From: Chamaesiphon sp.
GTDB lineage: Bacteria > Cyanobacteriota > Cyanobacteriia > Cyanobacteriales > Chamaesiphonaceae
Assembly (NCBI GenBank): GCA_965246715.1
Contig: CBDFFH010000020.1
Location: 197,726-261,725, forward strand
Direction of reading: 5' to 3'
Length of the DNA: 64,000 nucleotides
This document shows, in pieces, positions 13,397 to 54,300 of this stretch. Below the pieces are notes generated by a model. It ran no database searches and was not told where the DNA came from. It saw only the letters and a list, made by a program, of their open reading frames with translations. A program made the translations under genes and the position numbers. How positions within the stretch are numbered: the first letter of the stretch is position 1; every line of letters begins with the position of its first letter.

Positions 13397-13467
13397 GTTC
13401 GGGTTTTATAGCGGTGGACTTAGTTTTGAGCTGGGTTTGCAGAGAAAATTAAAGGCTATTTCTAGAT

Positions 13468-16425: not shown

Positions 16426-16581
16426 AGAGTTAGCTTCGGGGCGGTAAAATTTGCGTTGTGTGAGTAGTCGATCGAGTTTAGTTGCTGACAATTCTCGATC
16501 GGGTAACTCGATCGATAATATGCAGGTTTTAGAAAAGAAATTTTGGTGGGAATTCGAGCATCATCGATTCAAGGATCGTCC

Positions 16582-20967: not shown

Positions 20968-21200
20968 TTGACTTTATTAACTTTGAAAAATTGACTATAA
21001 ATGATATTTAGGGGATCTGGCGATGTTTTCGTGAGATACATCGCTGGAGAGTAATTATCCTCTACTGCCAGTGTATCGATTACATCGTCATCTCTGCATA
21101 TTCCTGTTCCTCCTCCTGTTCCATCTCCTGTTTTGGGGCTATTACAAATACCTCCATCTCTATCTCTGGGGCGTGGGTACTTGCTTCGTATATTCCCGCC

Positions 21201-21237
21201 GTTACAACCCTCATCAGCCTAAAATAACTGATGTCAC
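21201..21237 (-). CRISPR. Solitary degenerate CRISPR repeat just downstream of cas7
   Basis: Minus strand reads GTGACATCAGTTATTTTAGGCTGATGAGGGTTGTAAC, 37 nt, with the hairpin and 3' handle of the array repeat. Confidence 0.85.
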
Positions 21238-21253
21238 TATGATTTACTCTTAT

Positions 21254-22114
21254 TTAAGCTAACTTATTAATAATTGGTGGATATTGAGTTTGCAGTCCTG
21301 CGATCGCATCACTCAGTCGAGTTAAGATTACACCTTCGGGAGCAGTACTTAAATCGATGCTATGAGTCTGTGTGTGCTCATCAACATTAACACTGACTAA
21401 ATTAGAGATCTTATTCAATTGAGCATTACCGTAAGGAGTACTATGTGTCGCCACGACACATTCAATCAAATCCCATTCACCCCGCTGTAAACTGGCTGTT
21501 TGCATTGCATGGTGCCATAGACAAATTAGCCATTGCCCCATATATTCAGCATCGATAATATTATTACGTTGCTTGTTAATGCAAGCATTAAATGTTCCTG
21601 TACCCTTGGTAACTACCCAATCAATATAAGAAGCATTACCCATCGTGCGATTCCCTTTGGAGTTAGTTGTTGCACTGGTGACGGCTTGTTCGATCGGCGA
21701 AGGGATATTGATTGAAACAGATGGATAGAGTCGATAAATTCCGCGAAAGCCTGTATCAATTACTTCTTTTTTATCTTTGCCAAAACTGGCGAATAATCCA
21801 CCATTGCCACGCCTATCCCAATAATCTCCCATCAGATCGGCTGGAGTCTTTTTATCTTTGATATATTTCTGCTGGATATCATCTAAATTATTGCCACTAT
21901 GATATAAATTACTGACACCATATAATAGTTCCGCCGTTTGGTTAATGCGGTTACTCATACTCGTTGGGGTAGCATAAATATGGCTATTGGGAAGCTGACG
22001 TGGTGCATTTCCAGCATTGGGATCGCCATTTGGATTACAGATGCGTCCTTCCATAATCATCACGTAGTCATGGCGGACAGAGGGATTGGTAACAATCGTC
22101 GTTGGATTAGACAT
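21254..22114 (-). CDS. cas7: Cas7 (Csd2-like), type I-C
   Basis: N-terminal DYVMIMEGRICNPNGDPNAGNAPRQ matches the Cas7c NPNGDP motif; YWDRR.NG; HSTPYGNA. Confidence 0.88.
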   Translation of the reverse strand: MSNPTTIVTNPSVRHDYVMIMEGRICNPNGDPNAGNAPRQLPNSHIYATPTSMSNRINQTAELLYGVSNLYHSGNNLDDIQQKYIKDKKTPADLMGDYWDRRGNGGLFASFGKDKKEVIDTGFRGIYRLYPSVSINIPSPIEQAVTSATTNSKGNRTMGNASYIDWVVTKGTGTFNACINKQRNNIIDAEYMGQWLICLWHHAMQTASLQRGEWDLIECVVATHSTPYGNAQLNKISNLVSVNVDEHTQTHSIDLSTAPEGVILTRLSDAIAGLQTQYPPIINKLA

Positions 22115-22168
22115 AGTTGGTAATTATTGAGATAAAGATGATTAGGTATTTTTGTCTGTGGTTGGCAA

Positions 22169-23854
22169 TTATTCGGATGTTTTTCCGACAGTAGCAGTGC
22201 GCCTTGCTTCCTGAAATTGGCTGATTCCCAGAGCTAAGAAAAAGGCTTGTTCGTCAGTCCAGCGTTTAGGTGGAGAAGCATTGGGGCAATCTTCTCCAAG
22301 TTCAGAGAAAGTTTTGTCGTACCAAACAGCTTTATCCGGTCTTGCGGCTAAGTAGGGAATAACTTTGGTGATGATTTGGGCAAAGCCCTGTGCTGGAGAA
22401 CTGAAGAGAGTTTGACGATAAGAATCAAGGGGATCTTTCCACCCTTCTCCTGGTGCCGCACTACGGGCAGCATAATAATAAGACATGGTTTTGCAAGCAG
22501 CAAAAACTCGTCCGACATGCCATGCAAATAAATTATCTGGTGTTGTTTCTGGTTTCATCATTCGATCGCCTTCTATAAAATTAGGGGAAAGCCAAGCTAA
22601 ATAAGCAATTTGTGCCCATTCTCGGTTTGATTTTTTTGCGTTGGGGTTGGGAACACCCTCAATTTTGAGCCGATGAATAACACTGTTGGTAATTGCTTGG
22701 GGCGGCAAATGACCGTTAATCATGGCTTCAAAAATCTGTTCGTTAGCTTTGGTAACTGCTTGTTTGCTGCTACCTTCAGCCACTGTTAACGCACCAAACA
22801 CCCAATAAGGCTTGGAAATTGTCAGATAACGTCGCTGTTGCTGATGGTAAAAAAGCAGATTATTCAGGAGTTTTAGAATAGATAGATCGGTTATCTGTCC
22901 GATTGCAGCCCGTCCCTTACCACTACCACCAATCCCAATATAGCCACAAGCAATTTTTAGATCTTCTGGTATTTTTCCAATACTTTTGGCTCCAATATTG
23001 ACTAAATTGATAATGTCTTCCAATGCTTGAACGGGATCTAAATCGGCGGCTCCATCCGAACCAAAAAAAGCGGCAATCTCCTTACCTGCTTCACTAATTG
23101 CTGCCATCTCTGGCAATGCCCCCCAGACCCAATAAAGACCGCCTCCTAGCCAGATGTTATGACCTTTGGCTTCTAGTAACTCCGTATATCGCTGAGTTGC
23201 AATTACAGCTTTTTCCGCTGAGATGTTGAGCGCAATTTTTTCATGTTGTCCCCACGAACGAAACATATCATCGTTGCATCCTAGCAGCGGAGCCGCTAAT
23301 TTCTTCGAGTGGATTCTGGGTAAAGTTCCTAGCAAATTTCCATCACCATTACCGATCGCCCGTTCCAAAGTTTGAGCTGCATGAACAGATCGAATTGCGG
23401 GTAGATCGTGGATATAAGTCCCGTCTTCTAGTCGCCAGACAATACGCCCATTTTCGATCGCGGTAATATCTGCTTTCGGTTTTTCAGCGATTTGTCGCTC
23501 TAATTCTAGTGGACGATCTGACTGCATCCAATCGACGATCCATTGTAACTCTGGAACTTCTAGACAGCGTTGCTTCAAAGCTTCAACCATCGCCGCAAAA
23601 GCTTGGGGCTTGCGAGTCGGATGGTAATAATCTAATTTGTCCGACCCGACAATTGGTGCAATCCCCGAAGTGCGGGGCAGATCTGGCAACCAAAAGCGTT
23701 TACGGGTTTTGTTATCTGTTTCCAGTGGCATTAGATCTGCGGCGGAACCAATTTGTCCATTAGCTCCAAGTAGAATTTCAATGCCCACATCCATTGGCGT
23801 ATAGCCATAGGGACGATCGATTCCCGTCGGAGAGACAACTGAATTAATTTGCAT
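22169..23854 (-). CDS. cas8c: Cas8c (Csd1-like) large subunit
   Basis: Lies between cas5 and cas7; PRTSGIAP..DKLDY and C-terminal AWHVGRVFA...EQAFFLALG; probable start ATG 23854 with GGAG RBS, overlapping the cas5 stop. Confidence 0.8.
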   Translation of the reverse strand: MQINSVVSPTGIDRPYGYTPMDVGIEILLGANGQIGSAADLMPLETDNKTRKRFWLPDLPRTSGIAPIVGSDKLDYYHPTRKPQAFAAMVEALKQRCLEVPELQWIVDWMQSDRPLELERQIAEKPKADITAIENGRIVWRLEDGTYIHDLPAIRSVHAAQTLERAIGNGDGNLLGTLPRIHSKKLAAPLLGCNDDMFRSWGQHEKIALNISAEKAVIATQRYTELLEAKGHNIWLGGGLYWVWGALPEMAAISEAGKEIAAFFGSDGAADLDPVQALEDIINLVNIGAKSIGKIPEDLKIACGYIGIGGSGKGRAAIGQITDLSILKLLNNLLFYHQQQRRYLTISKPYWVFGALTVAEGSSKQAVTKANEQIFEAMINGHLPPQAITNSVIHRLKIEGVPNPNAKKSNREWAQIAYLAWLSPNFIEGDRMMKPETTPDNLFAWHVGRVFAACKTMSYYYAARSAAPGEGWKDPLDSYRQTLFSSPAQGFAQIITKVIPYLAARPDKAVWYDKTFSELGEDCPNASPPKRWTDEQAFFLALGISQFQEARRTATVGKTSE

Positions 23855-24521
23855 AGCCGCCTTCTCCACGTCGGGGATATGCCGGAACTGTGACCACTCC
23901 ATCAATTATCTTGGCTTCAAACATCACTGCTGCGCCCGTGACTCGTTCCATCGGTCGATCGGCGAGCATTGCTGTTGTTCGACGGGCAAATGTCTTCTTG
24001 ACAGGTTTAGAGGTGGGTTCCCAAGTCCAATAGTGAGGCATTCTCCCTAGACTCATTTGTTTTATATCGATCGGTGCTGGACTAACAGCATCCTTGGCTA
24101 GTAGCTCTACCGTGGCAGGGTAATCACTGATGCCCATGCTAGGTTGATAATAGTGTTGTCCGCTCAGGAGTCTTCGAGCTAGTTGACCGATTCGTTCCTT
24201 CGAGTCAACTTCGCTGTCACAGTCTAGCCAGAAATCCACTAAATATTTTGGTTCTACGAGTAGCTCATAAGTTCTTAGCCAGGGATCGCCCGTTTGGTGA
24301 TTGAGTTGGGTGACAGTCTCAGTTGTGTAGGAGATCGGATTTAATATAGAAATCGATTTGACCTGAACTGACTGACCTGGATGCCAATAAACTGCATTAA
24401 TTATTCCTTCCACTGCGGTGGGGGTAATAATCGGGTATGTACTCGGTTCGCCTGGATTACCAGGTCTTTGAAAGTGCCCAAGTGGAGCACTAATGATTAC
24501 TTTCAAACGACTCACTCCCAT
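23844..24521 (-). CDS. cas5: Cas5c (Cas5d), crRNA-processing Cascade subunit
   Basis: FQRP...STYPIITPTAVEGIINAVYWHP and YYQPSMG match type I-C Cas5 motifs. Confidence 0.9.
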   Translation of the reverse strand: MGVSRLKVIISAPLGHFQRPGNPGEPSTYPIITPTAVEGIINAVYWHPGQSVQVKSISILNPISYTTETVTQLNHQTGDPWLRTYELLVEPKYLVDFWLDCDSEVDSKERIGQLARRLLSGQHYYQPSMGISDYPATVELLAKDAVSPAPIDIKQMSLGRMPHYWTWEPTSKPVKKTFARRTTAMLADRPMERVTGAAVMFEAKIIDGVVTVPAYPRRGEGGYAN

Positions 24522-24543
24522 GCACTAATTTGACTTCTATCTA

Positions 24544-24572
24544 ATATTAGCGATATCATTTGAAAATAGCAA
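24544..24572 (-). promoter_or_regulatory. Putative sigma70 promoter of cas5-cas8c-cas7
   Basis: TTGCTA-N17-TAATAT on the minus strand, with the -10 ending about 22 nt before the cas5 ATG. Confidence 0.7.
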
Positions 24573-24573
24573 C

Positions 24574-24608
24574 AAAAAACATCACTCAGTTTAATGAATG
24601 ATGTTTTT
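24574..24608 (-). terminator. Intrinsic terminator closing the mini-array transcript
   Basis: AAAAACATCATTCA-TTAAAC-TGAGTGATGTTTTTT hairpin with U tract on the minus strand. Confidence 0.75.
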
Positions 24609-24717
24609 ATGCTCGCCAGTATTAGATATTTACAACCCTCATCAGCTTTTCAAGGCTGGTGTCATCTCTCAATTGTAGATCTTACAACCCTCATCAGCCC
24701 CGAAAAAATGGTGTCAC
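24609..24717 (-). ncRNA. crRNA-like mini-array (repeat, 15-nt spacer, repeat, 20-nt guide); CreR-like
   Basis: Degenerate 37-nt repeats at 24681-24717 and 24629-24665; the guide TATCTAATACTGGCGA matches 24538-24553 at 14/16 behind TTC; candidate promoter TTGAGA-N18-TAAGAT at 24735-24764. Confidence 0.85.
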
Positions 24718-24765
24718 TGTAGCTCGTCTATAACATCTTACCTACCATTCTCTTACGATCTCAAT

Positions 24766-26916
24766 ATGATTCTCACACCTCTAGCTCGTCCGAATCAACC
24801 ACTGTTGGCACACTTACTCGGAGTCGGTCATCATACTGGTCGATTATGCTCTTCCCAATCGGATTGGGCAAGGTTAATTGGATTGCTACACGATTATGGT
24901 AAATATCGCCCTGAATGGGTAGAGGGGATAAATGCAATTGCCAATGGGGAAAATCAGGACAAGCTTCCTGATCATGCTGTCGAAGGTGCGCTGTATCTAA
25001 TCGAGATGTTTCCAGATCGATCTCATTTTAAGGTGAGGGCGTTAGCATTATTAATTGCTGCTCACCACGGTGGTCTGGGGGATCTGAAGCCAAGCATGGA
25101 TTGGTTAGCAGGAAAGGATTCTGCTCGTCCGCTCCCAGATATGGATCGTTGTCAATGGAAGATTGATGATAAGTATTTAGTTGAAGTAAAAAAGACGATC
25201 GCTGTTGCTAAATATAGTGATTTAGATACTTGGATGCCTCCTAATGACTATCGTACCGCTCAACGACTGCGATTTTTGTATGGTGCGCTAATTGCTGCCG
25301 ATCGACAGGATGCAGCGATGAGTGATGGATGGAAACCTGCTACATATTGCTCGATGACAACACTGGCAGATAAATTGGCTACTTGGTATGAATCGAAATT
25401 TAGCCAGCCTGAAAATCCCTTGGATAGATTGCGGGGTGATTTTTATACTGAGTGCCGGAAGGCAGCAAAGCTTGAACCAGGCTGGTTATCAGTGCGTGGG
25501 CCATGTGGTATATCCAAGACTTGGAGCGTGATGCAAATGGCTCTCGATCGTGCAGCCCAATGGGATAAACAAAAGGTGATTTATTGTGTGCCTTGGACGG
25601 CAATTTTAGGGCAGTCTTACAACCAGTACCAGGAGGTATTAGGTGCTGATAATGTTCTCGGACACTGGAGTACGTTAGTCGATCCTAAAACTCAAGATCC
25701 TGAGCAACTTCGTAACTCTCGACAGTGGTGGGAAACTCCCGTTATCGCTACGACAATGGTGCAACTGTTTGATGTGTTACTAGGATCTAGAGCGCGGACG
25801 GCGCAACGGATGCCCAGTTTGCAAAATGCTGTGATTGTCTTGGATGAAGTGCAGGGATTACCGAATGAGCTACTCATTACTTGCATTAAAGTACTCGACC
25901 AGCTAGTTCAAGACCACGGAGTAACGATTATCCTGTCTACGGCAACTATGCCAGATTACGCACCTTTGGGCATTAACCCGATCGAAGCACTTCCTCAGAC
26001 TAAAGTTGATGAATATTTTGAGGGAACTAAACGGGTCGAATATCGATGGGCTGAGGAACCCCTAACATGGGAATCCATCGCCGCTGAAATCGTCCAATCT
26101 CAAAAAAGTAGCACCCTGATTGTGACAAATACTGTGGCTGCTTGTGATGATGTTTATACTGTTATGCAGTCTCTGCCAAATCATCGAGTCTATAAATATA
26201 CTGCAAGTATGTCTCCTGCCCATCGTGCTGTGGTCTTGGCAGAGATTAAGGCAGCGGTTAATGAAGCAAAAGAAGGCGGCAATCCTGTAATTATTTGTGC
26301 GACTAGCGCGATCGAAACGGGTGTAGATCTCGATTGTACTCAGGGCTATCGCGAACTATCAGGATTAGAATCGATCGTGCAGTTTGCCGGAAGAATCAAC
26401 CGGAATAAGAAGGATAGTGAGTGTCCTGTGACTATATTTAAAACTGTAAAACATTATCCAGTCCCACCTGGTAGCGATCGACGCACAACTCGCACTTTAC
26501 AGGCTATGGCAATGGGTACCGATCTACAGTCCCCCAATGTATTGGCATTTTACAGTCAGCTAATTTTCCAAGATGCGCTTTCATCACAGCAAAATCCCAA
26601 TGTTTATAATTACTTGGAGGGTCTTAAAAAGTTGGAATGGGAGACTGTCAGCCAAAAATGGCAAATGATTTCTCCGACAACTCCAGTATTAGTCGATCCT
26701 CGCTTATGGGATGCCTCTGTTAGTATTCTTGCTGAATATGATGAGGCCATGAGCGAGGCTAATTATCGCGTCTTACAGCGGCACTGTATTGGTATGTACA
26801 AGCGCAAGTACCAACAAGCTAAAGACGATCGATGTATTGTTGAGAGTCAAATCAAAGGTCTAGATGAATGGGTTGGTATTTATGACATGGGTGTAATCCT
26901 CAACGCGAACCCCTAG
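24766..26916 (+). CDS. cas3: Cas3 HD nuclease-helicase
   Basis: LLAHL, GLLHDYGK, AHHGGL, ADRQD; variant Walker A GPCGISKT, LDEVQ, SAT, ETGVDLD, QFAGRINR. Confidence 0.95.
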   Translation: MILTPLARPNQPLLAHLLGVGHHTGRLCSSQSDWARLIGLLHDYGKYRPEWVEGINAIANGENQDKLPDHAVEGALYLIEMFPDRSHFKVRALALLIAAHHGGLGDLKPSMDWLAGKDSARPLPDMDRCQWKIDDKYLVEVKKTIAVAKYSDLDTWMPPNDYRTAQRLRFLYGALIAADRQDAAMSDGWKPATYCSMTTLADKLATWYESKFSQPENPLDRLRGDFYTECRKAAKLEPGWLSVRGPCGISKTWSVMQMALDRAAQWDKQKVIYCVPWTAILGQSYNQYQEVLGADNVLGHWSTLVDPKTQDPEQLRNSRQWWETPVIATTMVQLFDVLLGSRARTAQRMPSLQNAVIVLDEVQGLPNELLITCIKVLDQLVQDHGVTIILSTATMPDYAPLGINPIEALPQTKVDEYFEGTKRVEYRWAEEPLTWESIAAEIVQSQKSSTLIVTNTVAACDDVYTVMQSLPNHRVYKYTASMSPAHRAVVLAEIKAAVNEAKEGGNPVIICATSAIETGVDLDCTQGYRELSGLESIVQFAGRINRNKKDSECPVTIFKTVKHYPVPPGSDRRTTRTLQAMAMGTDLQSPNVLAFYSQLIFQDALSSQQNPNVYNYLEGLKKLEWETVSQKWQMISPTTPVLVDPRLWDASVSILAEYDEAMSEANYRVLQRHCIGMYKRKYQQAKDDRCIVESQIKGLDEWVGIYDMGVILNANP

Positions 26917-27072: not shown

Positions 27073-30000
27073 GTGACACCAGTCCTTCGGGGCTGGTGAG
27101 GGTTGTAAGCTAGCGAAATTGTCCCACTTACTTACACCACTTCGTGACACCAGTCCTTCGGGGCTGGTGAGGGTTGTAAGTTGCCGGGTAGTCTCGCCGA
27201 AAAGCAGCAAGCCTACGAGGTGACACCAGTCCTTCGGGGCTGGTGAGGGTTGTAAGACATAAACCGTATAGCTAGCGGTAGCTGTGGCTGGAGCAGGTGA
27301 CACCAGTCCTTCGGGGCTGGTGAGGGTTGTAAGTAAATACTGGCAAAGATGATCCAAATTTAAAAGGGGTGACACCAGTCCTTCGGGGCTGGTGAGGGTT
27401 GTAAGATCGAAATTGCCAGCAAAACGGTAGTTCTTACCCCGTGACACCAGTCCTTCGGGGCTGGTGAGGGTTGTAAGTCGATCGTTATCATCTCCGATGA
27501 GAGGCAGAATAACCGCGTGACACCAGTCCTTCGGGGCTGGTGAGGGTTGTAAGGAGTGGGGAGCGGCGATTCTCGCCCTTAAGGCGTGACACCAGTCCTT
27601 CGGGGCTGGTGAGGGTTGTAAGACTCGATCGGGCAACAACAAGGCACTCAGTACTATGTGACACCAGTCCTTCGGGGCTGGTGAGGGTTGTAAGGGGTTT
27701 GTCTGTTTGCTCCGTTGCAGAGGGATAGATGTGACACCAGTCCTTCGGGGCTGGTGAGGGTTGTAAGAAGTAGTATTACTGCAAAACAACAATCATTTGG
27801 AGTGACACCAGTCCTTCGGGGCTGGTGAGGGTTGTAAGAAAGTCGATAATTTCGTATGGCTTGGTGCTGGGTGACACCAGTCCTTCGGGGCTGGTGAGGG
27901 TTGTAAGTCAACGATCGATTGCCGATCTCGATCCACTCCCGCGTGACACCAGTCCTTCGGGGCTGGTGAGGGTTGTAAGTAGGATCGGTGTAGCACTTGG
28001 CAGAGTCGGGGATAGTGACACCAGTCCTTCGGGGCTGGTGAGGGTTGTAAGGCCGATTGTTCTGAAACCCATCTTGACAGACTTTAGTGACACCAGTCCT
28101 TCGGGGCTGGTGAGGGTTGTAAGCTCGATACCACCGATCGAGCGGTCCGTCTCGATGTGACACCAGTCCTTCGGGGCTGGTGAGGGTTGTAAGTGAGTTA
28201 GATCGGATGGGCCGATCGATTGTAGTGACACCAGTCCTTCGGGGCTGGTGAGGGTTGTAAGAGACATGATTCGATCGGCATGATGACATCATATTCATGT
28301 GACACCAGTCCTTCGGGGCTGGTGAGGGTTGTAAGAATTTAATTAATCACTTAATATCATAACTCTCTGTGACACCAGTCCTTCGGGGCTGGTGAGGGTT
28401 GTAAGCAAATCATTGCTTACTGGTGCTAGTTGTGGCTGGCAGTGACACCAGTCCTTCGGGGCTGGTGAGGGTTGTAAGGGATGGCTAATCACACAACTGT
28501 CTATCACCATAAACCCACGTGACACCAGTCCTTCGGGGCTGGTGAGGGTTGTAAGAACGCGATCGCTCAACCAGGCGATGCAAGCGCGGTGACACCAGTC
28601 CTTCGGGGCTGGTGAGGGTTGTAAGACCATTTTGATAGTAAATCCGATCTGTTTCTATGTGACACCAGTCCTTCGGGGCTGGTGAGGGTTGTAAGCAATA
28701 CTTAAATTCTCCGTGCACCGAGAAATACAATGTGACACCAGTCCTTCGGGGCTGGTGAGGGTTGTAAGGAGCCAATAGACAATTGGAGCTAAGAGTTGTA
28801 GTTGAGTGTGACACCAGTCCTTCGGGGCTGGTGAGGGTTGTAAGTGTTGATAATCGCACCAGCTGGCAGGATTAACGCAGTATCAGGTGACACCAGTCCT
28901 TCGGGGCTGGTGAGGGTTGTAAGCTTAAACTAAGCGGAATCACTAAAAACGAAATGCTGTGACACCAGTCCTTCGGGGCTGGTGAGGGTTGTAAGTTTGA
29001 GTATTATAGGGAGACTAGAGCGGGCAAGAATTTTGTGACACCAGTCCTTCGGGGCTGGTGAGGGTTGTAAGTTTGGGCAAGTCTTCTACCGACCATTCAG
29101 ATGCGTGACACCAGTCCTTCGGGGCTGGTGAGGGTTGTAAGATGAGAATTCGCCCAGTCATCGCAAACTCGAAGTGACACCAGTCCTTCGGGGCTGGTGA
29201 GGGTTGTAAGTCAGGGACTTGCTCTTTTGAAATCGAGGATGGGGAGGTGACACCAGTCCTTCGGGGCTGGTGAGGGTTGTAAGAATTTGATTGCCCGCAG
29301 GATGACGATACAAATAGGTGACACCAGTCCTTCGGGGCTGGTGAGGGTTGTAAGTGCCAGCATGAGTGTTAACACCATTAACAGCCGTGACACCAGTCCT
29401 TCGGGGCTGGTGAGGGTTGTAAGTAGAACATTGAAATTGTTGAATATTATCTGTGTGACACCAGTCCTTCGGGGCTGGTGAGGGTTGTAAGGCAAATGCC
29501 GTATCGCAGCGATCGAGATGCTCCGTGACACCAGTCCTTCGGGGCTGGTGAGGGTTGTAAGCGTCCATATCGAGTATAGTCACTGACTCAAATGTGACAC
29601 CAGTCCTTCGGGGCTGGTGAGGGTTGTAAGTGGAAGCTATGTAAAAATTCTCGATCGCTACCCAGGTGACACCAGTCCTTCGGGGCTGGTGAGGGTTGTA
29701 AGAAAACAATGACATTAGTAAACAAAATTGAATCGATTGTGACACCAGTCCTTCGGGGCTGGTGAGGGTTGTAAGAGCCCGAAACGGCTAGCCACAGCTC
29801 AAAACTCATTGTGACACCAGTCCTTCGGGGCTGGTGAGGGTTGTAAGACGACAGCAAGTCAAACACTGATTTTACCGACGGTGACACCAGTCCTTCGGGG
29901 CTGGTGAGGGTTGTAAGCAATTGTGTCCGTGTCCGGGGTCTGATACGCTGTGATGTGACACCAGTCCTTCGGGGCTGGTGAGGGTTTGTAAGGGGAATAA

Positions 30001-31005
30001 TAATCGTCGCGCCGCCCAAACCGCAGGTGACACCAGTCCTTCGGGGCTGGTGAGGGTTGTAAGTCCTGAACGGTCGTCCTACAACAGTAAAAACCTTATC
30101 GACGGTGACACCAGTCCTTCGGGGCTGGTGAGGGTTGTAAGCAAAAAGGCTCGGAAAATGCCAATGATAGCTCACGGTGACACCAGTCCTTCGGGGCTGG
30201 TGAGGGTTGTAAGATGGCGTGCCGATCGAGATGGACGATACCTATGTGTGACACCAGTCCTTCGGGGCTGGTGAGGGTTGTAAGAAAACTTACTGGAGCG
30301 GACTTACTCGCTCGCATGTGACACCAGTCCTTCGGGGCTGGTGAGGGTTGTAAGCTAGCGATACCTCAGTATTGCTGTTGACCTGAATTGCCATTATGTG
30401 ACACCAGTCCTTCGGGGCTGGTGAGGGTTGTAAGGATCGTTAAGGTATCGGTACCCCTGTCCCAGTAAATGTGACACCAGTCCTTCGGGGCTGGTGAGGG
30501 TTGTAAGCCTGGAAAGTTAACGATCGCCCCGCGCAAGACGTGACACCAGTCCTTCGGGGCTGGTGAGGGTTGTAAGTGTTGTTATACCCTAGATTTCGCA
30601 ATTCTTTAGGTGACACCAGTCCTTCGGGGCTGGTGAGGGTTGTAAGAGTCGATCGGGTGTCATCGCAAAACCATATTGATAATATGACATCAGCCTTTCA
30701 GGGCTGGTGAGGGTTGTAAGGAGTATGGTACGCCAATCGTCCTCAACATCTACACGGTGACATCAGCCTTTCGGGGCTGGTGAGGGTTGTAAGAAGTCGA
30801 TCCATTAAGGTGTGGCGAATTGTGCAGCTTTTTTTTGGGCTGCTGAGGATGGTAGTTCTGTGGGACAACGTTGTCCCACAGAACTACTGGGTGACATCAG
30901 CTTTTCTTTGGGGCTAGTGAGAGCTATGAGAACGGCAAACTAATTCTTACTCTGCGGGGCAATACCGATGACATCGGCTCCGAAAGGCTGATTAGTGCTG
31001 TAAAT
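27073..31005 (+). CRISPR. CRISPR array, about 55 repeats and 54 spacers
   Basis: 37-nt repeat GTGACACCAGTCCTTCGGGGCTGGTGAGGGTTGTAAG occurs 50 times (the copy at 29955 has an extra T), then 5 increasingly degenerate trailer repeats from 30684; spacers about 28-43 nt. Confidence 0.99.
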
Positions 31006-31183: not shown

Positions 31184-31588
31184 GTGGTAACTATGAGTAA
31201 CGTTAACGATCGGAGGATTTTTGAACTTGACCTTGGTTGTCCGTTAGAACCAGATGATCTCTTAAGCTACTATGCAAATGGAATGCTTATTCCAACAGAT
31301 CGAGAGAAGTTTTTGAAAAACCATGTTGAAAATGGCTATAAGGAGCCTCTTAAAATACTTGCGAATCGTGAGAAAAGAGCTGCTGAAGAAATAACCGAAA
31401 TCCTAAAAATGGAGTCTGAGTACAAGTCTGAAACAGAAGAACAGAAGAAAGGCCGATGGATAAAAGAGAAAAAACAAGATGCCCATGACTATCACGACCT
31501 ACAAAAAGACTTACGGGCTTGGGATAATGATAGTGACGAGCCTAGACCGAGCACTAATTGGCGAGAATTGGAAATGTACGGACTGTAG
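31184..31588 (+). CDS. Hypothetical charged protein
   Basis: 134-aa ORF (ATG at 31193 is an alternative start); no recognisable motif. Confidence 0.6.
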   Translation: MVTMSNVNDRRIFELDLGCPLEPDDLLSYYANGMLIPTDREKFLKNHVENGYKEPLKILANREKRAAEEITEILKMESEYKSETEEQKKGRWIKEKKQDAHDYHDLQKDLRAWDNDSDEPRPSTNWRELEMYGL

Positions 31589-31709: not shown

Positions 31710-34700
31710 TTATATTGCTATCTCTATTTCCCACTCCTGTTCATGATTCTCTGTTTGTATTGGGACAAATGCTGGGATAGATTGCTCTGTTTGCTCTTGA
31801 GCTGGACTTGCCTCGTATATACCCGCAGAGTTGAGGTACAAGTCATAGCCCGCTTCCACAAGATAATCTCTGGTCATTTTATCGATGCCCGTGTCAGCAC
31901 CGACTAAAAACTTCGCTTTAGCCTTTGTTGCAATATCGATCTGTGGTGCATACTGAGTACGAAAATGCTGTGCCAGTAACTCGTTGCTAGTATCCCTCCC
32001 CGTCCGATTCCCGCTGACCATTACTACATCTGTCGATTTGTAGGCGGTTACATTAGCATTAGTACCCCAGTTGTCGCGGTACATAGATGTGCGACTTCTA
32101 GCTTCGAGTGGAATCCCAATATATTTGTTAGCCGCAAATCCCATCATGATATCAGTCTGAGCGCGAGACTGTAGCTTAGTCCAGTCCTTGTTTGCGCTGT
32201 AAGAGTTGAGGATTGGGTTACTCCGCTTAATCCCATCCCGCACCAAAACGTGACTGACAGCACGATCGTTGAGATAAGTTTGTAATACGGCAGATTCCAC
32301 CACCGCAAAGTATCGGGTTGATTTGCCATCCTCGCTGGGTAGCTCGGCACCGATTGGTAAGCCCAGGTGATAAACTGCTGTGTCTCTTTGTCTCGAATTG
32401 ACAAATTCAAACACGACCGACGATCCAATCTCGACTCCTTTACCCTTGAATCTAGTTAAAACCTCTCCAGCGATCGGTTTTAGACTGTAAGAGACAGGTC
32501 TAGATCTGTTCAGATCTAACATTGGGGTATCTGTGGCTTGCGGGTATCGTTCGATCCATTTCTTGAGAATATTAAGTTCGATCGGACACCGATAGCGAGT
32601 AATGGGGATGCTGGCAAGTTTAGCTTGGTAATCTGCTTGAGTGACTGGCTTCCCTAGTTGTTTAGAAATCATGCTTTTAACCGAACTTTCCAACCCTGCT
32701 GGATCGAGCCGCAATACCGTATACGAACGACGAGATTCCTCATAGCTGGCGGGGATACCACGTTCCATTTTTGTATAATTGACATCCTTCTCTGTGAGCC
32801 TTTTTTCGACCGCAACAATCTTGTTTTCTGGTATGACTAACAGTAGCTGCTCAACTTCTTTCAATCCTGACTCATCAACAATGGGCACCATAACCTTAAC
32901 TGAAAAAGATTGCGGAAAGGAATTACGATCGGCTTGACGACGCAAGTTGCGACTTGTCTCTTCCAAAACAACCTTGACTCGATCGCGAAGCGCGCTACCA
33001 AGGCGGTCGCTCTTAAATTCGACTGATTTCAATTCCCTGACTGTCAATTTTGGGCTTTGTACCTCATCTTTTGTAGCGCGCTGATAAGTCCTGGCAGGTT
33101 CGACATCGGCCCAGATATTGCTGTTGTAAAGAGTATTCTCATCAATCGATATTTTATATCCAACTTGTTTGGGGATGACACTCTGCACTTTAATCGAGAT
33201 TTCATCGGTATCTGCAAGCTCGGTAATCCGATTGCCCCAAAATTTTTGCTCGGCAGTTTGCGTAATCTCCCCAATCCTTGTCTCACCGCTGTAGACCTCG
33301 ATCGTTGAATTTGGCTCAAGATCTCTGACTAAATCGACTGATATTGCTTCAAACCGTTCCGTGCGGACGGGTTCGGTAACAGTATCGCGATTTTTTTTCT
33401 CGTAAATGGGACTAGAATTTACTCCTGACAGATAGTAAGTTACACCAGCAATCGCTACGGTTGCAGAGAACTTGTTATCAAAAATCTTGAGTCGTTCGAG
33501 CGTCAGCTCCGCCGATTGCCCGTCACCCAAAACCGCTGTAATTTCTGGAGCGATGTCAATAACTTTAATATCGATCTGCTCTGATGGCACTACTAAACGA
33601 TAATTTGGTGTCTGGGTGCAGATGACTCGGATCTCCCTCACATCGCCACTGTCGATTAAATGCTTGCCCTCCCCAGTCAGTTTGCCCACCAACACCGATC
33701 GTTGGTTTCCCTCTAACATCGGCGATTTAAACGTGACGGTGTTGTAGTTAGGCTCGATCGTGCCCTGGAAGCTAGTCTTATCTAGCAGTTGAATGCCATA
33801 GCCAGTCAACTGACCAGCTTCGATCCACTGCTGTTTACCATCAACTTCTGCCTGTGCTTTAAGTTGTTTCGTACCATCGCTACCTGCCATCACAAAGTAC
33901 TTGGTGGGTTTGGTGAGGTAATCTGGATATTGGGTATCCATAATAATCTGCCCCGCTCCCCGATCGAAGATAAATTCATTCAGTGTCTGGGGTAAAGCAC
34001 TCAACAAGAAGTCTTGAGAGATTGCTTTCTCTCCTACCATTTGAGCGGTGGCAGCAAATACCTCACGCTTGTCCCAGCCTCGCTGCTCGATTTGGGCGCG
34101 GAAATCTGCCAAGACTTCGCGGGATTCGGCTTTGAGTTCGTCAATGCGGTTGTGGAGGACTTCAAATTCAAAATCGCTCACATGCTGTTTGCCCTCAGTA
34201 ATAGCCGAAGTTTTCGCACTCGATCCCAGCGTGTACTGATAGTCGATCCCCAATGAGGTTGACGAATTAGCGGGATAAAAAGTCACCAAGCCATTGCTAG
34301 ATTCGATCGCTCCCTTGCCTTCAAGTTGGCGAAAAGTATTAATCTCGCTGACATTACAGTCGCCGACGACAATTTTACTGCCATTAGTAGTGTAGATATT
34401 GAGGACGATCGGTTTGCCAAATTTCAAATCATCTAAGGCTTTTTTCTCAAGTGCGATCGTCGATTGAAGATTTTGGTAGTCGTCACGGAAATTGGCGACC
34501 ATCGCCTTCATTTCTGGCTCGACTGGAACAGATCGCAATTGACTGATTAGTGCGTTCAAGGTCATGCTACTGCTCGGTGGTAGCCGATTCTGGTGGTTCT
34601 CCTCAACGATGAATCGTTTGAGTAATTGGATCCCAGCATCGAGTTCGGGTAGCTTGTTGGTAACGGCATAGACTGTTCCCTCGCTGGGTTTCACCCCAGA

Positions 34701-37080
34701 TTTGACAAAATCTACCGCTCGTTGATTTTCTCTATCTACGACTTCAATACATTTGCGGAGTACGACGGTTTGGTAATCGCGTAAGTAAGTGTCGATCTGG
34801 GCGGGATCGTAGGGATAGTTGGGAGTAACATCGATCTTTTCGGTAAAAATCAGGGGTAGATTAGTGTCGGGATCGATCGTTGGTTGGTTACTCGTCAATG
34901 GTTGAGAGAGATCGATAATCTTACTTAACCGTTCGCGCACGCTCGCGTAGTTCTCAAGATAATTCACCAGTAAAGCTGGATCTGCCTTACCCTCACGGAT
35001 CGCCATCAGCTTCATGGACTTGACTTTCTCCATATCCTCAATCAGATCTGAAGGAAAAACAATCCCCTTCTTCGCATTGATGGGTTTAGCTGCAAGAGTC
35101 TCCGCGTGATACGCACCTAGTAACTGCGCGATTGGCTTTCTCACTAGATGAAGATAGTTAGCTTGAGTGTGGGGATTGTCCGTCTGCTCTTTGATGAAAT
35201 CGACGCTAAACAAAGGTGTGAACTGCTCGAACGTGGCTTGAAGTTCTGGCGGAACTTCAAGTTGTAAATTAACATCTGGCTCGACCACAGATTTTGCATC
35301 CGCTCGATACTTGTGAAAAGAGCTGTAAATTAGTTGCAGTGTCTCGGTTTTGAGCTTTTCGGCAGATCGGCGATCTGCTGCTGATAACTCTCCATCCGTG
35401 CTGGCGATGATAAAATCCAAACTTGCATAGAGTTTATTGATTTTACTCAGTTCGCTATTGATAATCCCTACATAATCTTTCAACCGTTCGACCACCATCC
35501 CAGGTAAATCTTCACTTTGAATTAGCTGCTTCTTGTCCTTCGAGACGAAGTGCATCAACTTTTCTGGGGTGAGGTTATCGACGACTTCCTGATAGAAATT
35601 GGGATAATCTCGTTCGGCAAATAGGGCGATCTGATCCCCATCGAAATCTGCCTTCATCGCCTCCAAATTTGTCCGCCAAGATGCTCGTGCTGCTGCGATC
35701 GAGCCAAACTCTTCAATAATCTGTTGATAGGTTTGGGGGTCATCCTGCTCGATTTCTGCCAGTGTCTGGCGACCGACATAGATCGCATCGGGGATGACTC
35801 CTTCTAGTTCGGGATTGAGAAATAGGGAGATGTTGTTATTGACTTCTACCGCTTGGACTTGTCCGCGATTGAGAACGGGAAACCGCAGCGCGACATGCTT
35901 GTCGCCAGTAGTTAAGCCCGCTCCAGCAATCTGATTGTGCTTGAGTTCGCCACAAACGACAATCGGGCGAAACTCACCTCGCATTGATGAGATCGCTCCT
36001 TCATTAATATTCTTAATTTGTCCGTCCACGTATTCCTGGAGGTTAGCGCGGACGCTAGGTAATTCGAGCAGTCCCCAATTCTTGGATTCTAAGATCGTAT
36101 CGATGAATGCGATATTTCCTGGTAGTTCGACTTCGGGTTTGCCCTTTTTTACTTCCTCCTGTTGGGATATTTTGAAGGTGCGGACGTAATCTTCCGCCAG
36201 ACTGATGAGATCCATCTGCTTTTGTTGGCAAATCTTGAATCGCTGTCTGAACGGGGATGCTCACATCTTTTGCCAATCCCAGAGCGTATAAGTCCTGCAC
36301 GGAACCGAGTTTGGCGGTAGTTTGACGGAATCGCTCGGTTCTGATGATAAATAGATCCGCAGGCTCGACTTGATGAATGCCAATTTTAGGGGGAAGCTTA
36401 CCACCACCTAAACCTTTGAGCATCGATGTGGTTAAGACTAAATCCACATCTACATCCACCCCATGAGTGGCAAAGTATTTCTGGAGATTGAGGGGAGTAA
36501 CTGTACCTTTGATATAGTAGGAGCCGATTTGGGGATCGAGGCTGTATCCGCGCACTTGGGATAAGCCGACATCCTCAATTAATTTCATCCGTTCGCCGAC
36601 GGATCGATCGATTATGCTCGCACCGTCGGCGGCAATATTGCGGATCGCTATTTCTGGGATACCGTAGTTATTCTGACCCGTTTCATGGTCTACTACCAAT
36701 ACCTTCAACTGACGATCTAGGGACTGGCTTTGTCCTTTTGCAAATAAACCCCTGGCGTAACCTGGAATCTGAGTTTCTAGGGGCATTAACGTCTTAATTG
36801 CCGCCTTGACTTCAGGAGTACCAAAATAGAGTTGAGCCGAGCTTGTAGCTAGTAAGACGGTGCCTTCAGGGGCATGGTTGGTGAGGTCATCAACGTTGAT
36901 ATATTTGGAGTAGGGAGCAACGTAAAATGTTGGCTGTTCGCCCTCTTTTAGTAATCCTTGCCGTCGCATTAATTGTTCTATGGTAGTACCTTCCCTAATC
37001 TCCGATCTAATCGCGCCAGAACTTACAGAGATTTGAGGTCTTCTATTGATGAGATCGTAATTGATTAATTTAATAGACAT
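31710..37080 (-). CDS. Two-barrel (YonO/RdRP-like) single-chain RNA polymerase with C-terminal SLOG-like domain; split by a 1-nt frameshift near 36227
   Basis: ORF 36055-37080 has DGASII, QVR, IKG and LTTSMLK; ORF 31710-36215 has RFPVL and ADFDGD (35634-35651); removing one base joins IQDL to QQKQMDL, giving about 1790 aa. Confidence 0.8.
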
Positions 37081-37145: not shown

Positions 37146-37889
37146 TTAATATGGAATGTCTTCTTCGTTTTCTACTTGTCTAGAGATGATTTTGGGTGGT
37201 GGCGGTGGTTTAGTAGATTGAGTTGCTATGCCTAGAAAATTTTGATGGCTTTGAGTTAGAAATCGCTGAATTCTTATTCTGGTTAATACTGGAATCTCGA
37301 TATTTTCTGGGTGGGCTAAATGATGAAGGATTGCCCCACTTGCTTCGATGAATTCGATTTCTGTGGGGTTGGTAATTATTCCTGGCAGATCGCAGATGTT
37401 AAAAAGGTCTGTTTCGTCATCCGTCTTTTCCAGCTTTCCCCAAACCCGTGCGTATTGATTCCTCACCCAATTGAGTTGCCAATCGTAGTTACATAGCTCT
37501 TGAAAGTAGTTAATACTGTCTCGATGTCCGTTACTGACAAACCAGAAATTATGTCTGATATCGGCGGTGAGAATACCTGAGATATTTATCCATTCCAAAA
37601 ACTTTACTTGAGAGTGACTGGCTAACTTAATTACCAATCTTTTATGGGTATGTACTAATTTGAAGATTTCATCGGCATCTAAATTATTGCTAATGAAATA
37701 TTGACTGGGAGCATGAGATTCTAATAAAAAGGGATTGTAGATTTCACTTAATGGTGAATTGGGACTGGTATCGATTACGATGGGAACGACTTGGAAATCA
37801 TTGAAAAATAAACTTTCCGTCAATGCTCGAACTGTCCAAGATTTACCGACTTGTGGTAAATTACCGCCAACCCAATGAATTTGAGCCAT
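37146..37889 (-). CDS. MobD/ParA-like P-loop protein (degenerate)
   Basis: N-terminal IHWVGGNLPQVGKS, then VIDT; located in a plasmid transfer region. Confidence 0.55.
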   Translation of the reverse strand: MAQIHWVGGNLPQVGKSWTVRALTESLFFNDFQVVPIVIDTSPNSPLSEIYNPFLLESHAPSQYFISNNLDADEIFKLVHTHKRLVIKLASHSQVKFLEWINISGILTADIRHNFWFVSNGHRDSINYFQELCNYDWQLNWVRNQYARVWGKLEKTDDETDLFNICDLPGIITNPTEIEFIEASGAILHHLAHPENIEIPVLTRIRIQRFLTQSHQNFLGIATQSTKPPPPPKIISRQVENEEDIPY

Positions 37890-38344
37890 CAGTTCTGCCC
37901 CGCATAAGTTAGATCGATCTCTGTATCATTTTTAATACCTAATTTCTCAATAATCCCCGCTTTAACTTCTATCACCGCATCGTATTTTTGTTGAAGTGAA
38001 TAGTTGGTGCATCGGTCGGTGCAAGGGGTCACGTTGGCATATAGTCCCACTACTCGGTTCTTGTTGATGAAAATCAGATCTGTCGCAAATTCCATACCTT
38101 TACCACTAAATGTTAATGGTTGTTGGGTTGTGGTTTGATATAGCATTCCTCGATCTGATGGGATATCTGGGCGATGGGTCAATCCTGTTTGTTGTGCGAT
38201 CGCATTCTTGGCGACCTCTAATTTAATTGCCTTGTCGCCAATCGTCGCCTGTGCTGTAATTGGCAAGATTGTTGGCTTGTTATTGCTAACTTTAAATAAG
38301 CTGCTAACATCGACTCCATGTAGATAAATTGGAGCTAATAGCAT
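37889..38344 (-). CDS. DUF192-family protein
   Basis: LEVA...QQTGLTHR..IPSDRGMLY...VIEVKAG; the upstream ORF extension runs through heptamer repeats and is probably non-coding. Confidence 0.8.
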   Translation of the reverse strand: MLLAPIYLHGVDVSSLFKVSNNKPTILPITAQATIGDKAIKLEVAKNAIAQQTGLTHRPDIPSDRGMLYQTTTQQPLTFSGKGMEFATDLIFINKNRVVGLYANVTPCTDRCTNYSLQQKYDAVIEVKAGIIEKLGIKNDTEIDLTYAGQN

Positions 38345-38559
38345 TACTAAATATGGAAGCTGTCCTTTGGTTAAAAATACGTTTTTTTTGTTGAAATTAA
38401 ACACGTTTTTATAAGGGGGAGGGGAGTGGGGGCGTAAGGGGGCAGGGGGGTAGGGGCGTAAGGGAGTGGGGGAGTAACGGAGTAACAGAGTAACGGAGTC
38501 GGGGAGTAACGGATTAAGAACACCACCCAACACCCCAACACCCCCACTCCCCAACTCCC

Positions 38560-40083
38560 TCACCCCCTCCTCCCCACGTAAATATCTAATTCCGGTAAAT
38601 CCAGAGCTGTAGGCTGGTTGGAACTGGCTGCTTCTGTAAATGCTTTGGCTCGGTTTTCAATGGCGAGGACACCTTCAGGGTTCGCGACTGTAGAGACTCT
38701 TGACCCGATTTCGGGCTGTGAGCAACGAATCTGCATCGATTTGAATGTTTTGACCCTGACCTTTGTAGAACTGCATCTTGGCTGCAACAATCGCCATTTG
38801 TGCCAGTTCTGCACCTGTATATTTATTGGTGGCTTCAATAATCGTCAGCCACTCTTCAATGCTCAATGGCCCATGTTCTGACTGGGCATACCGTTTGATC
38901 GAAGCTAGCGCAGTGCAGTTGGAGAATCTGTTTGCGCTCGTCAGAGCTAGGGAAATCCACGTAGAACACCCTGTCGAATCTACCCGCACGTGAGTTCAAA
39001 AGCGGAGGTTTTCGAGACGGTTCAAGTTGCAAGTCACGAAAGTGGCGGAAGTCTTCTCGTTGAGCCAAGTGAGGAGAATACCGAGTAATTCTTTGCCATG
39101 TTCGTCGGCAAAGAACTTATCGAATTCATCGAAGTAGGCGATGCAGGGTTCGCAGGCATCGATCCGCTTGAGTAAGTTGCTTAAACTTGGCAACACCGCC
39201 GGATCTGACTACATCGATGCCGATATTTACTAAGGGAAGTCCCAGTTTTTGAGCGCAGATCTTCGCGAAATAAGTCTTCCCCGCCCCAGGTACACCGACT
39301 AAAATCCAGCCTCTAGGCAGCGGTAGTCCGCATTCTTTCGCGGCTGGGGTGAAGTCCATTTTCACTTCTTCTAGAGCCTGCTTGACTAGATCCATCCCAC
39401 CAATATCTTTGGTGGTGGTATCGCCGATGAATTCTAGTCCGAAGGATTTGAATAGAGTCGTATTTGTAGTTCAAAAGGCGATCGCCTAGAGTTTCGAGGT
39501 TGGTAAGAACATCGCGATTGGCTCTAATCCCAACGGTAATTTCCTCTACTGTCAGACCCGCTAAAATGTTGGCTAGTCGGGGCGATTGCAGTCAAGATCG
39601 ATCCCATGCTCTAATAGGAGAGTAGTTAGCTCAAAAGTTGTGGGTAAAGGAAATTTATATTCCCAAATAATTTGGCTAAAAAAGAAGGAATATTCCCTCG
39701 TCCCGATTCCATGAAGATGACCAGACATTCTCGATTTAATGATTGAGTCGGGCGAATAGTTGCGAGATTGCTTGATAACAACCTTCGCGTTCTATTGGCG
39801 ATACTGCATCGATGAGAGCAAACAGGTTCTCGAATACATACAAGCCATTGGTATTAGCTTGTAACGAGCTAATTGACTCGATCGCTGCGTTAGCTGGATC
39901 TCTATCCAGCGATCCGACCCATTGTGATAAGGGCTGAAAATCTGGCTGCAATAACGACCATAAATAAACGGGTTTATTTAACTCATCCCCCACTAATTGA
40001 ATCTTGTCTAGAGTGTGTTGACGATCGATTACTGTCGTCTCGACCTTAATTAATGGATAGTTCCTAATTAAGTTTTTCAACAT
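38560..40083 (-). pseudogene. Ycf46-like AAA+ ATPase with multiple frameshifts
   Basis: Consecutive fragments in different frames carry GVPGAGKT (Walker A), YFDEFDK (Walker B), RAGRFD and YTGAEL. Confidence 0.8.
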
Positions 40084-42060: not shown

Positions 42061-43731
42061 CTAAAGACTGAAGGGCTGCGCGATAATGAGATTGACATCC
42101 GTACCCGTGGGCAAGAAATAGATTTTGGAAGCACTATTAATCTGGGTAGTTGTCTGTTTATTCCGTTCCATCCACTGAGTCACTAATGGACTAAAACCAC
42201 CGTCTAGCACCGCCCCTAATATATTTTGTTGTGAATTGCTAGTTTGGATGATGCCGCCAGTGGTTGCAACGGTTTGAGTTTGGCTTTGGGTGAGGTTTTT
42301 ACCGATCGCCGAGAAAGCTCCACCTGCAAAACTCATCAGATCGCGATTGAAGACCTCGCCCTGCCCGAATGATTTAACTTGGGCGACTAATGGCTGTTTG
42401 CTGGCATCTTGGAGGATAATTGCCTGCTTGGGTAGGTCGATTAGTTGCCCGTCAATCGAGGCTTTGGCACTGGATACCTGAAGCATCCCATTATCGAGGG
42501 CGGCAACTTCACACATAATCTGAGTGCCAGCAGGTAGTAAGGTTTTGCCTTGAGTATCGAGTACGGCTGTGGATAAGGCGATGAAAATTGGCTGTGAGGG
42601 TGCGGTCGTCACTGCTTGATAGGGAATCACCAGTTTGGATTTAATTTGTTGCCCCACCGCCGCCGAGCCAGTGTTGCGAGCCGACCGATAGTTGCTAGCA
42701 GGTGGATTATTTGTGGGTGAAGTCGCGATCGTGGCAACCGCAGGCGATCCGTTTGCAGTCGCACCTGTTTTACCCCATACTCCCACCGCATTGTTATTGG
42801 CGACTTCCCAGGTAACGGGGGTAGCCCTGGGGGTATTTGTAGCTCTAACGCTTGGTTGTGGACGATTCTCCGCAGGAGATGCTCTGCCAACGACTGCTGC
42901 AATTCTTGTCGGCTTCTCTTTCACCTGAACGACCTTACGAACTGGTGTCGGTATGGACGCGGGTGTTGGTTTAACTGCCACGGGTGCAGCAGCTACTGGG
43001 GTCGGTGTGGTGACTGGCGGGGGAGCTTGGTAAACCGGATCGGCTTGTGGCGAATTATTTTTGATGATTTGAGGATTGCTATCGGTTGGTGGTGGATTAG
43101 TGGCGATCGACGAGCTAGGCGATGGTGAAGTTGCGGGTGTAGCAGTAACATTAACTGGAGGCGCAGCAGTTTTATCTACCGCAGTTTTGTCAGCAGAAGC
43201 TTTCTGTTGTGCGACTGCTGCCTCGATAACTTGTCTTTGGGAGTCTCCCATTGCTAGTTTGGAGTTAACAACTCCAAATCGAGGATCTGGTCTAAAATCC
43301 TCTGTAGGCTTTGCCGATGGGCTGGGGCTAGGTGTCGGCGCGGCGGCGACTTCTGGTTTCGTATCTGGCCAAACGATCGATCTTAGTACCAACCCAGCGA
43401 TTAACAATCCTCCTCCGACCAAGATCGTTTTGAAAAATGACTGCTTATAAATCGGTAGCTTAGTTTTAGATTCAGCAATATTTTCCGCTTGTTCTGTGGC
43501 GGTAATCGCCATCGAGTTGGCTGGATCTGTTGAATCGGTGGGTGACAATCCAGCTAAACTCGCCATATCCAGTGGGTTGAATGGGGCTGTTTTTGGTGCG
43601 GATGTGGGTTCTGGTTGTTGTTCTGGCTGTGTCTGAGGCTGTACCGAAGCTGGCTGTTTAATTGCGGACAAGATTTCCCCTTGCGCGAATCCTTCGCTGT
43701 GGTCTTCGTTGGGATTTGAATTGTTAATCAT
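42061..43731 (-). CDS. TrbI/VirB10-like type IV secretion protein
   Basis: Single TM helix, long Pro/Ala/Thr linker, C-terminal LLPAGTQI...YFLPTGTDV beta domain; true start likely ATG 43731. Confidence 0.75.
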   Translation of the reverse strand: MINNSNPNEDHSEGFAQGEILSAIKQPASVQPQTQPEQQPEPTSAPKTAPFNPLDMASLAGLSPTDSTDPANSMAITATEQAENIAESKTKLPIYKQSFFKTILVGGGLLIAGLVLRSIVWPDTKPEVAAAPTPSPSPSAKPTEDFRPDPRFGVVNSKLAMGDSQRQVIEAAVAQQKASADKTAVDKTAAPPVNVTATPATSPSPSSSIATNPPPTDSNPQIIKNNSPQADPVYQAPPPVTTPTPVAAAPVAVKPTPASIPTPVRKVVQVKEKPTRIAAVVGRASPAENRPQPSVRATNTPRATPVTWEVANNNAVGVWGKTGATANGSPAVATIATSPTNNPPASNYRSARNTGSAAVGQQIKSKLVIPYQAVTTAPSQPIFIALSTAVLDTQGKTLLPAGTQIMCEVAALDNGMLQVSSAKASIDGQLIDLPKQAIILQDASKQPLVAQVKSFGQGEVFNRDLMSFAGGAFSAIGKNLTQSQTQTVATTGGIIQTSNSQQNILGAVLDGGFSPLVTQWMERNKQTTTQINSASKIYFLPTGTDVNLIIAQPFSL

Positions 43732-43876
43732 AGGGTGGGGGAGTGGGGGAGTGACGGGGTAGGGGAGTGATGGGGTGGGAGCAAGGGAGTGGAAGATTAA
43801 GGGGGTGTAGGGGCGTAAGGGAGTGAGGGAGTAATAAACACACCCCAACACCCCAACACCCCAACTCCCCACTCCC

Positions 43877-46141: not shown

Positions 46142-46669
46142 AAAAATATAGCAAGTCGCATCATATTTCTAACAGATAAATCGATCGATGATATGGGCTA
46201 AATTACTCGATCTCAAGTCCAGCTATCTAGCGGATAGCCTTCGATCGATGTAGTCGCTATAACAAGTTAATGGTATCGATAGTTCGGGTAATACGATCTT
46301 CTCAAGTAACATGAATCTTTCTAAAATTTGCCTGACTTCGATCGCTTTGATGTGTTGGTTTGTCAATCGCTGTAGTCCAGCATCGGCCTTGCCACCATCA
46401 GATATCGTCCAGTATCAATCGCCACAGCAAGAAGTTTTAACTATTAATTTACATTCTGGTTTGGGTACGAATATTAGTTTCAATGCTGTGAATGAGACAG
46501 TAGAAACGATGTTTTTGGATAACCAATCATATATATCTCTAACGACTGATGGTTGTCTTTCTAAATCTGAAACCCAACCTTGTGCCTCTGGTTCTGCACC
46601 TACACTCGTCCATCTCTCGTTAATCGACGATATCGAATTGCCAGGAGTAATCCGTGTCAATAAACGAGC

Positions 46670-54170: not shown

Positions 54171-54300
54171 GGGACGTAAATTAACTTAACATTCCTTTGT
54201 ACTATTCTATAGTACTGGTGCCCATAAGTGGGCAGATAGCAACAAAAAGCTATGTCTGACTGTGGTTTGGCGGGTAGTACGGGCGATTCAAGATTTGAAT

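Follow-up and report, generated by a model that had tools for sequence, protein, structure and literature searches.

According to Ruprich-Robert and Thuriaux (2010, PMC2919709), two-barrel polymerases share eight invariant residues, namely four aspartates, an arginine, a proline and two basic residues. The same work lists cyanobacterial proteins resembling YonO as a group, and fusions to RNase H were noted and a primase role proposed by Aravind et al. (2012, PMC3417536), which confirms the surmise of an earlier note on the present DNA that similar proteins had been noticed computationally. Among bacterial proteins, the family stands structurally close to the eukaryotic RNA interference (RNAi) polymerases, has been proposed as their source and is known only on paper, no functional study having been found in the literature searched (subscription papers and supplements lay outside it). 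Homologues are carried by plasmids of laboratory strains, among them Nostoc PCC 7120 (alpha-plasmid gene WP_010999746.1), which makes the function directly testable. The member described here is encoded in a 64,000-nucleotide stretch of Chamaesiphon sp. DNA (the window), which forms the end of contig C20 (CBDFFH010000020.1, 261,725 bp) of genome G000 (GCA_965246715.1). It fits the cyanobacterial RNA-dependent RNA polymerase (RdRP)-like/YonO-like family in its mobile element, its bipartite motifs and the RNase H fusions of some members, and is predicted from its modelled fold to be a two-barrel polymerase resembling QDE-1 and RDR2.

Results

The polymerase gene spans 31710..37080 on the minus strand as two open reading frames (ORFs; 36055-37080, 341 amino acids (aa), and 31710-36215, 1501 aa). 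The six motifs listed in the earlier note are all present in the order claimed, the first-barrel motifs DGASII (36627-36610), QVRG (36558-36547), IKGT (36513-36502) and SMLKG (36426-36412) being followed by LRFP (from 35888) and ADFDGD (35651-35634). The 5′ part (36220..37080, minus strand, residues 1-287) is 97% identical to the intact copy of a second genome (G401) and carries D152, Q175-x-R177, K191-G and S219-x-x-K222; the remaining core (34560..36215, minus strand, about residues 289-840) carries R399-x-P401, D478-x-D480-G-D482 and Q787-x-x-V-D-x-x-K794. As a control for chance, the ordered pattern was found in 0 of 2000 shuffles of the intact copy and in 0 of 749 long frames of the source genome (the split gene itself uncounted), compared with 80 of 103 family representatives of at least 900 aa. 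D152, R177, K191, K222, R399, P401, D478, D480 and D482 are all retained in 96 of 100 alignment rows, and the eight invariant residues are present, the motif residues being matched to QDE-1 numbering by motif order rather than by residue-level superposition.

The predicted fold places two double-psi barrels in one catalytic fold around DFDGD. Together with the conservation of the aspartates in homologues it supports the two-barrel identity that had been proposed. The closest solved folds to the core are QDE-1/RDR2 and the single-chain RNA polymerases (RNAPs) of phages P32 (gp64) and P74 (gp62), which equal QDE-1 in Z; YonO itself is absent from the structural matches. None of 18 family proteins matched Pfam RdRP (PF05183) with E as high as 1 allowed, and PHROG 34895 and PHROG 4291 match 6/10 and 3/10 family proteins, respectively, neither matching the Chamaesiphon core. 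The polymerase is very probably catalytically active and quite probably uses a DNA template. As the fold extends to about residue 840, the roughly 1100 aa of unknown sequence that had been placed after the motifs shrink to an unexplained middle of about 790 aa.

The gene is split by an extra base at 36227..36229 (minus strand), the sole gap relative to the 1,789-aa G401 polymerase, from which the window gene otherwise differs by 303 substitutions. Both pieces lie in one chain in 31 of 33 homologues, the remaining two being N-terminally cut, and complete single-chain homologues are about 1,780 aa or longer. The base has no counterpart in a 717-nt contig (X1) and a 160-nt contig (X2), each with 0 substitutions, from public runs of one study, X1 possibly being the source sample and its contig having a depth of about 4, a level flagged for errors. 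Core substitutions relative to G401 fall at codon positions 3:1:2 in the proportion 99:18:9, a pattern that looks purifying, and a comparison with 97 orthologues from genome G290 shows 3 frameshifts and 2 in-frame stops not attributable to either genome, the frameshifts suggesting background indels. The extra base is most likely an assembly error and the gene a real and probably intact member of its family. That the window copy is a true pseudogene within a decaying transfer region, regardless of family function, is improbable: the frameshift stands in the assembly, the neighbouring AAA gene is broken at least three times, an insertion sequence (IS) splits a tra gene and X1 has a depth flagged for errors, but the two contigs lacking the base, the purifying-looking core and the background indels all argue the other way.

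The middle region (32178..34559, minus strand) comprises several beta-rich and alpha/beta domains that are largely clade-specific and gave no significant match in structure searches. It is followed by a SLOG-like domain (31806..32177, minus strand), YAcAr-like and possibly circularly permuted, and by an acidic C-terminal tail (31710..31805, minus strand; pLDDT <50 in a homologue) that is a candidate export signal by tail comparison. VVMVSGNR (32027-32004), FLVGADTGIDK (31910-31878) and the acidic end lie where the earlier note had them. Its SLOG/DprA-type label, assessed as a Rossmann-like strand-G-x-R, helix, strand-G-x-x-x-G-x-D, helix, is moderately supported by HHalign (70%, E 4e-5 against two YAcAr stretches), by Atlas leads of 0.82-0.86, which are below 0.9, and by a profile matching 36 of 188 family proteins, but not by Pfam, which gave no match; the whole-region fold searches listed no SLOG. 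A second Chamaesiphon clade (L041, L043, L044 and L046; about 24% identity, about 1,850 aa) also has a SLOG-like tail, with a P-loop-like gene downstream of the polymerase.

Accessory domains vary among relatives. From 150 listed family representatives, 47 long proteins were scanned in sets of 19 and 28, with Pfam accessory domains in 12 and 2 of them, respectively, including cpYpsA or YAcAr SLOG, NADAR, DUF4326, RNase H and a RecD-like helicase; SLOG, NADAR and DUF4326 have been tied to ADP-ribose conflict systems (PMC9503650). The 5′ end is complete in ten distinct close-clade loci, counting the window and leaving out one duplicate, and five of them carry an N-terminal extension of 280-380 aa, in which a HipA-like kinase with a D-R-x-x-x-N-W motif leads through a Pro-rich linker into the usual polymerase start (5′ ends of L029, L030, L033, L036 and L038). 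The kinases swap independently of the polymerase core: L029 and L030 share 32% identity in the kinase and 97% in the core, L030 and L033 share 98% and 88%, and the kinase label takes 3 changes on the core tree, with clustering no stronger than in shuffles (229/500). A gene of about 240 aa lies directly upstream of each fusion, and that of L030, the sole one tested, resembles HIRAN/HipS clusters (score 0.90). The L030 kinase itself looks N-terminally cut. This toxin-swapping variant of the clade is unreported; it recalls VbhT, a toxin that has become joined to a substrate of conjugation (PMC5675462), and provides the main new argument for export. Another suggestive pointer in the sequences is the C-terminus, where the last residue is R in 33 of 95 long family members compared with 6.7% of 2,109 genome ORFs, and a simple tail motif occurs in 22/95 compared with 53/2,109. 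Several neighbouring relaxases have Q/E-rich ends, and the putative relaxase of C20 ends in acidic residues like the window polymerase.

The polymerase was found in 11 of 401 genomes of the phylum with a single-protein query and in 16 of 39 genomes of the family with a profile search, and the named close homologues are from Chamaesiphon. A Nostocales core query returned 95 plasmid records, of which 43 are typed conjugative and 16 mobilizable, and tblastn gave no match among 50,697 phage records. Of ten distant loci whose polymerase gene is full, six have a relaxase among the neighbouring (hand-picked) ORFs, as do both annotated plasmids viewed. Two weak chromosomal family matches in G401 (G401:C1 1785896 and 2125573), in open frames of 1,228-1,481 aa, are possibly integrated elements.

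Contig C20 has no tRNA, and among its ORFs are some whose starts look relaxase-, ParA/B- or integrase-like (labelled by eye). Its transfer-polymerase-CRISPR (clustered regularly interspaced short palindromic repeats) block aligns collinearly, at about 85-95%, with the 446,651-bp contig G401:C2, which belongs to a three-contig genome; C20 is read as a large plasmid. Next to the polymerase lie a small convergent gene (31184..31588, plus strand), a possible partner with homologues in 11 other distinct loci and no Pfam or NCBIfam match, and, on the minus strand, genes for a P-loop-like protein (37146..37889), which in Chamaesiphon loci stands either up- or downstream of the polymerase, a DUF192 protein (37889..38404) and an AAA ATPase (38560..40083), which has at least three frameshifts here and is intact at 505-506 aa in relatives. 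AAA, DUF192 and P-loop-like genes usually accompany the polymerase in Chamaesiphon, in variable order. The P-loop-like protein ends (37146-37200) in an acidic D-I-P-x tail resembling the C-terminus of single-stranded DNA-binding protein, and the ORF at C20 38396-39466 has the same ending. Among the neighbour labels of the earlier note, the AAA gene was borne out, as was VirD4, the coupling protein (50851..53007, plus strand); the VirB10/TrbI-like gene (42061..43872, minus strand) rests on a sub-cut-off TrbI match in its homologue L028 (E 3e-5), and the VirB8-like and MobD-like labels found no Pfam or NCBIfam match. Insertions in the transfer region comprise ISL3, a second DDE transposase and a group II intron reverse transcriptase (44877-48010, 60175-61986), the second splitting a conserved tra gene and judged real. 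With these insertions and the broken AAA gene, the region is possibly decaying, and the element as present in the window may have lost the ability to transfer. At 53096-55793, an AAA ATPase similar to anti-phage IteA (below cut-off) adjoins a VWA protein. The G401:C2 transfer region (L075:3446-6485) has a PD-(D/E)XK nuclease and a Piwi-domain gene in a place that AAA and VWA genes occupy in the window. The stretch 274-16491 resembles a chromosomal cluster in G425 and has three trypsin-trypsin-TPR paralogues along with three COP23 genes.

A CRISPR array of 52 repeats and 51 spacers (27073..30793, plus strand) adjoins cas7, cas8c, cas5 (minus strand) and cas3 (plus strand) at 21254..26916, whose best matches are type I-C models, mostly below the models' curated cut-offs. 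The set of cas5c, cas8c, cas7, cas3 and array is that of type I-C; cas1 is absent from this contig and was found on another. The trailer-end spacer (30721..30756, plus strand) matches sibling polymerase genes at 33, 32, 31 and 31 of 36 positions, the best being L028, each match preceded by TTC, the type I-C protospacer adjacent motif, which also flanks three weaker matches because of a conserved Phe codon. Its match to the window's own polymerase gene is 27/36, after TTG and with 5′-end mismatches, and the G401 version of the spacer matches L028 at 35/35. As a control, at least 22 identities were reached by 1 of 51 spacers (at 30) and 1 of 1,020 shuffles (at 23); the earlier claim of an array aimed at a polymerase homologue holds. 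From the 3′ end of a second polymerase gene, of sibling type, a remnant of 178 bp survives (21024..21201, minus strand, 92.7% to L029) and joins exactly the end of a degenerate CRISPR repeat past cas7. G401 has at this junction a second small-gene-like ORF and then backbone genes, and on C20 the backbone genes of the sibling type follow about 29 kb on; we infer recombination between two related plasmids. The single spacer reflects plasmid competition, not a polymerase singled out as target. The cas strand also bears degenerate repeats that could form a regulatory mini-array: a pair separated by a 15-nt spacer ahead of cas5 (24630-24717) and a single one after cas7 (21202-21240). A homologue of cas8c is present in 5 of 39 family genomes, compared with 16 of 39 for the polymerase, and the same module stands beside a dnaK-like gene in L078 (G413:C156), in a genome without a polymerase profile match, indicating that it moves independently.

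Discussion

The setting points to a role of the polymerase in transfer or establishment, which we regard as reasonably likely. By analogy with the Sog primase and Frpo priming (PMC8406263), the plasmid-borne, single-chain enzyme, predicted to be active and likely DNA-templated, would leave the donor through the conjugation channel and, in the recipient, would make RNA on the incoming single strand as primers, first transcripts or both. The long tail and accessory domains would be cargo protecting or aiding establishment, here SLOG and in relatives NADAR, DUF4326, RNase H, helicase or a HipA-like kinase. This mechanism is a tentative proposal somewhat short of an even chance, as is the physical translocation of the protein on which it depends, for which kinase fusions and tails offer indirect support, including for passage with the T-strand. 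More speculative, and on balance doubtful, is the reading of the giant chain as an injected QDE-1-like polymerase that both primes and transcribes the incoming strand and carries interchangeable cargo (toxin kinases of the HipA type along with their cognate antitoxins, and counter-defence domains of the SLOG/NADAR kind), a cyanobacterial counterpart of polyvalent proteins at whose gene rival plasmids aim CRISPR.

Several observations weigh against export and priming. YonO, a bacterial relative with a published test, serves to transcribe late genes in its host cell rather than to prime (PMC5467207), and the known tail signals of type IV secretion carry, as described, a positive charge (PMC5675462); the window tail is acidic and lacks such a signal. 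It also fails the simple tail motif, which was written after the family data had been viewed. The window copy has no kinase, the kinases of relatives score up to E 7e-7 with Pfam HipA_C yet below cut-off, and the fusions could yield two products, since the original ATG is kept after the linker. Among the 95 polymerase-bearing plasmids 36 are typed non-mobilizable, the position of the gene differs between elements, and IS insertions interrupt the transfer region of this strain. DUF3854 or DUF3991, which we take to be primase-associated, occur on some relatives' relaxases and weaken a pure primase role.

The main alternative is a dedicated transcriptase that would act in the donor on the transfer operons of the double-stranded plasmid, as YonO does for the late genes of SPbeta, the small convergent gene perhaps regulating it. 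The single late operon transcribed by YonO (PMC5467207), the phage RNAPs that rank with QDE-1 and the clade-specific domains of about 790 aa, which could recognise promoters, are in keeping with it, and linkage to tra genes fits equally well; we nevertheless hold it unlikely, as swappable toxin-like kinases, ADP-ribose-type accessory domains and relaxase-like tails would go unexplained. The kinase fusions would also go unexplained by a primase of vegetative plasmid replication, the role proposed previously (PMC3417536), whose chances we consider slim. RNase H and helicase fusions in relatives agree with such a role, as does a 720-aa gene without a Pfam match that, with integrase-like genes, follows the polymerase in relatives, and neither C20 nor G401:C2 has a match to DUF3854, Toprim_2 or Prim-Pol (other primase families lay outside this search). 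The neighbours, however, are mostly transfer genes and relaxases, and large plasmids can use host DnaG. Least probable is an RNA-dependent enzyme of a defence or small-RNA pathway working with the adjacent CRISPR system. The top folds are eukaryotic RdRPs, a PHROG labelled RdRP is weakly matched by 3 of 10 proteins and the Piwi-domain gene of G401:C2 is about 15 kb distant, but Pfam RdRP is unmatched, cas8c and the polymerase differ in distribution as given above, and type I-C systems target DNA, the polymerase gene being here the target. If the polymerase is delivered during mating, it would provide a new route of plasmid establishment without host primase or RNA polymerase, and with the kinase fusions cyanobacteria would have a new means of delivering toxins in a contact-dependent way.

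Compared with known systems, the window protein shares with the in silico cyanobacterial YonO-like/RdRP-like proteins the two-barrel motif set, the association with selfish elements and the RNase H fusions of some members, to which the conjugation link, kinase fusions and CRISPR targeting are added here (PMC2919709, PMC3417536). Unlike QDE-1 of Neurospora and Thielavia and plant RDR2, with which identity is 11-14%, it lies on a bacterial plasmid, lacks a Pfam RdRP match and has about 950 extra C-terminal residues. YonO, P32 gp64, P74 gp62, P23-45 gp96 and the crAss phi14:2 polymerase are phage proteins, whereas the window protein is plasmid-borne, of a family without a tblastn match in phage records, and about twice the size of YonO. 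With the Sog primase, VbhT and polyvalent proteins it shares the form of a large plasmid protein adjoining transfer genes (PMC8406263, PMC5675462, PMC5512222), the fusion of a toxin-antitoxin toxin to a presumed export carrier and the mixing of conflict domains on one chain; it differs in its two-barrel polymerase enzyme, its acidic tail and the absence of a BID domain. Polyvalent proteins are reported to be scarce in cyanobacteria, and the main text of that report contains neither 'RdRP' nor 'SLOG' (PMC5512222). The main text on hipIN modules likewise lacks the word 'fused' (Gerdes et al. 2021, PMC8262856). As in these modules, a HipA-like kinase is paired, in relatives only and with one case tested, with a HipS-HIRAN-looking gene, the upstream gene of L030 being likened to HipN; here, in contrast, the partner is encoded upstream of the kinase, which itself forms an in-frame fusion with the polymerase.

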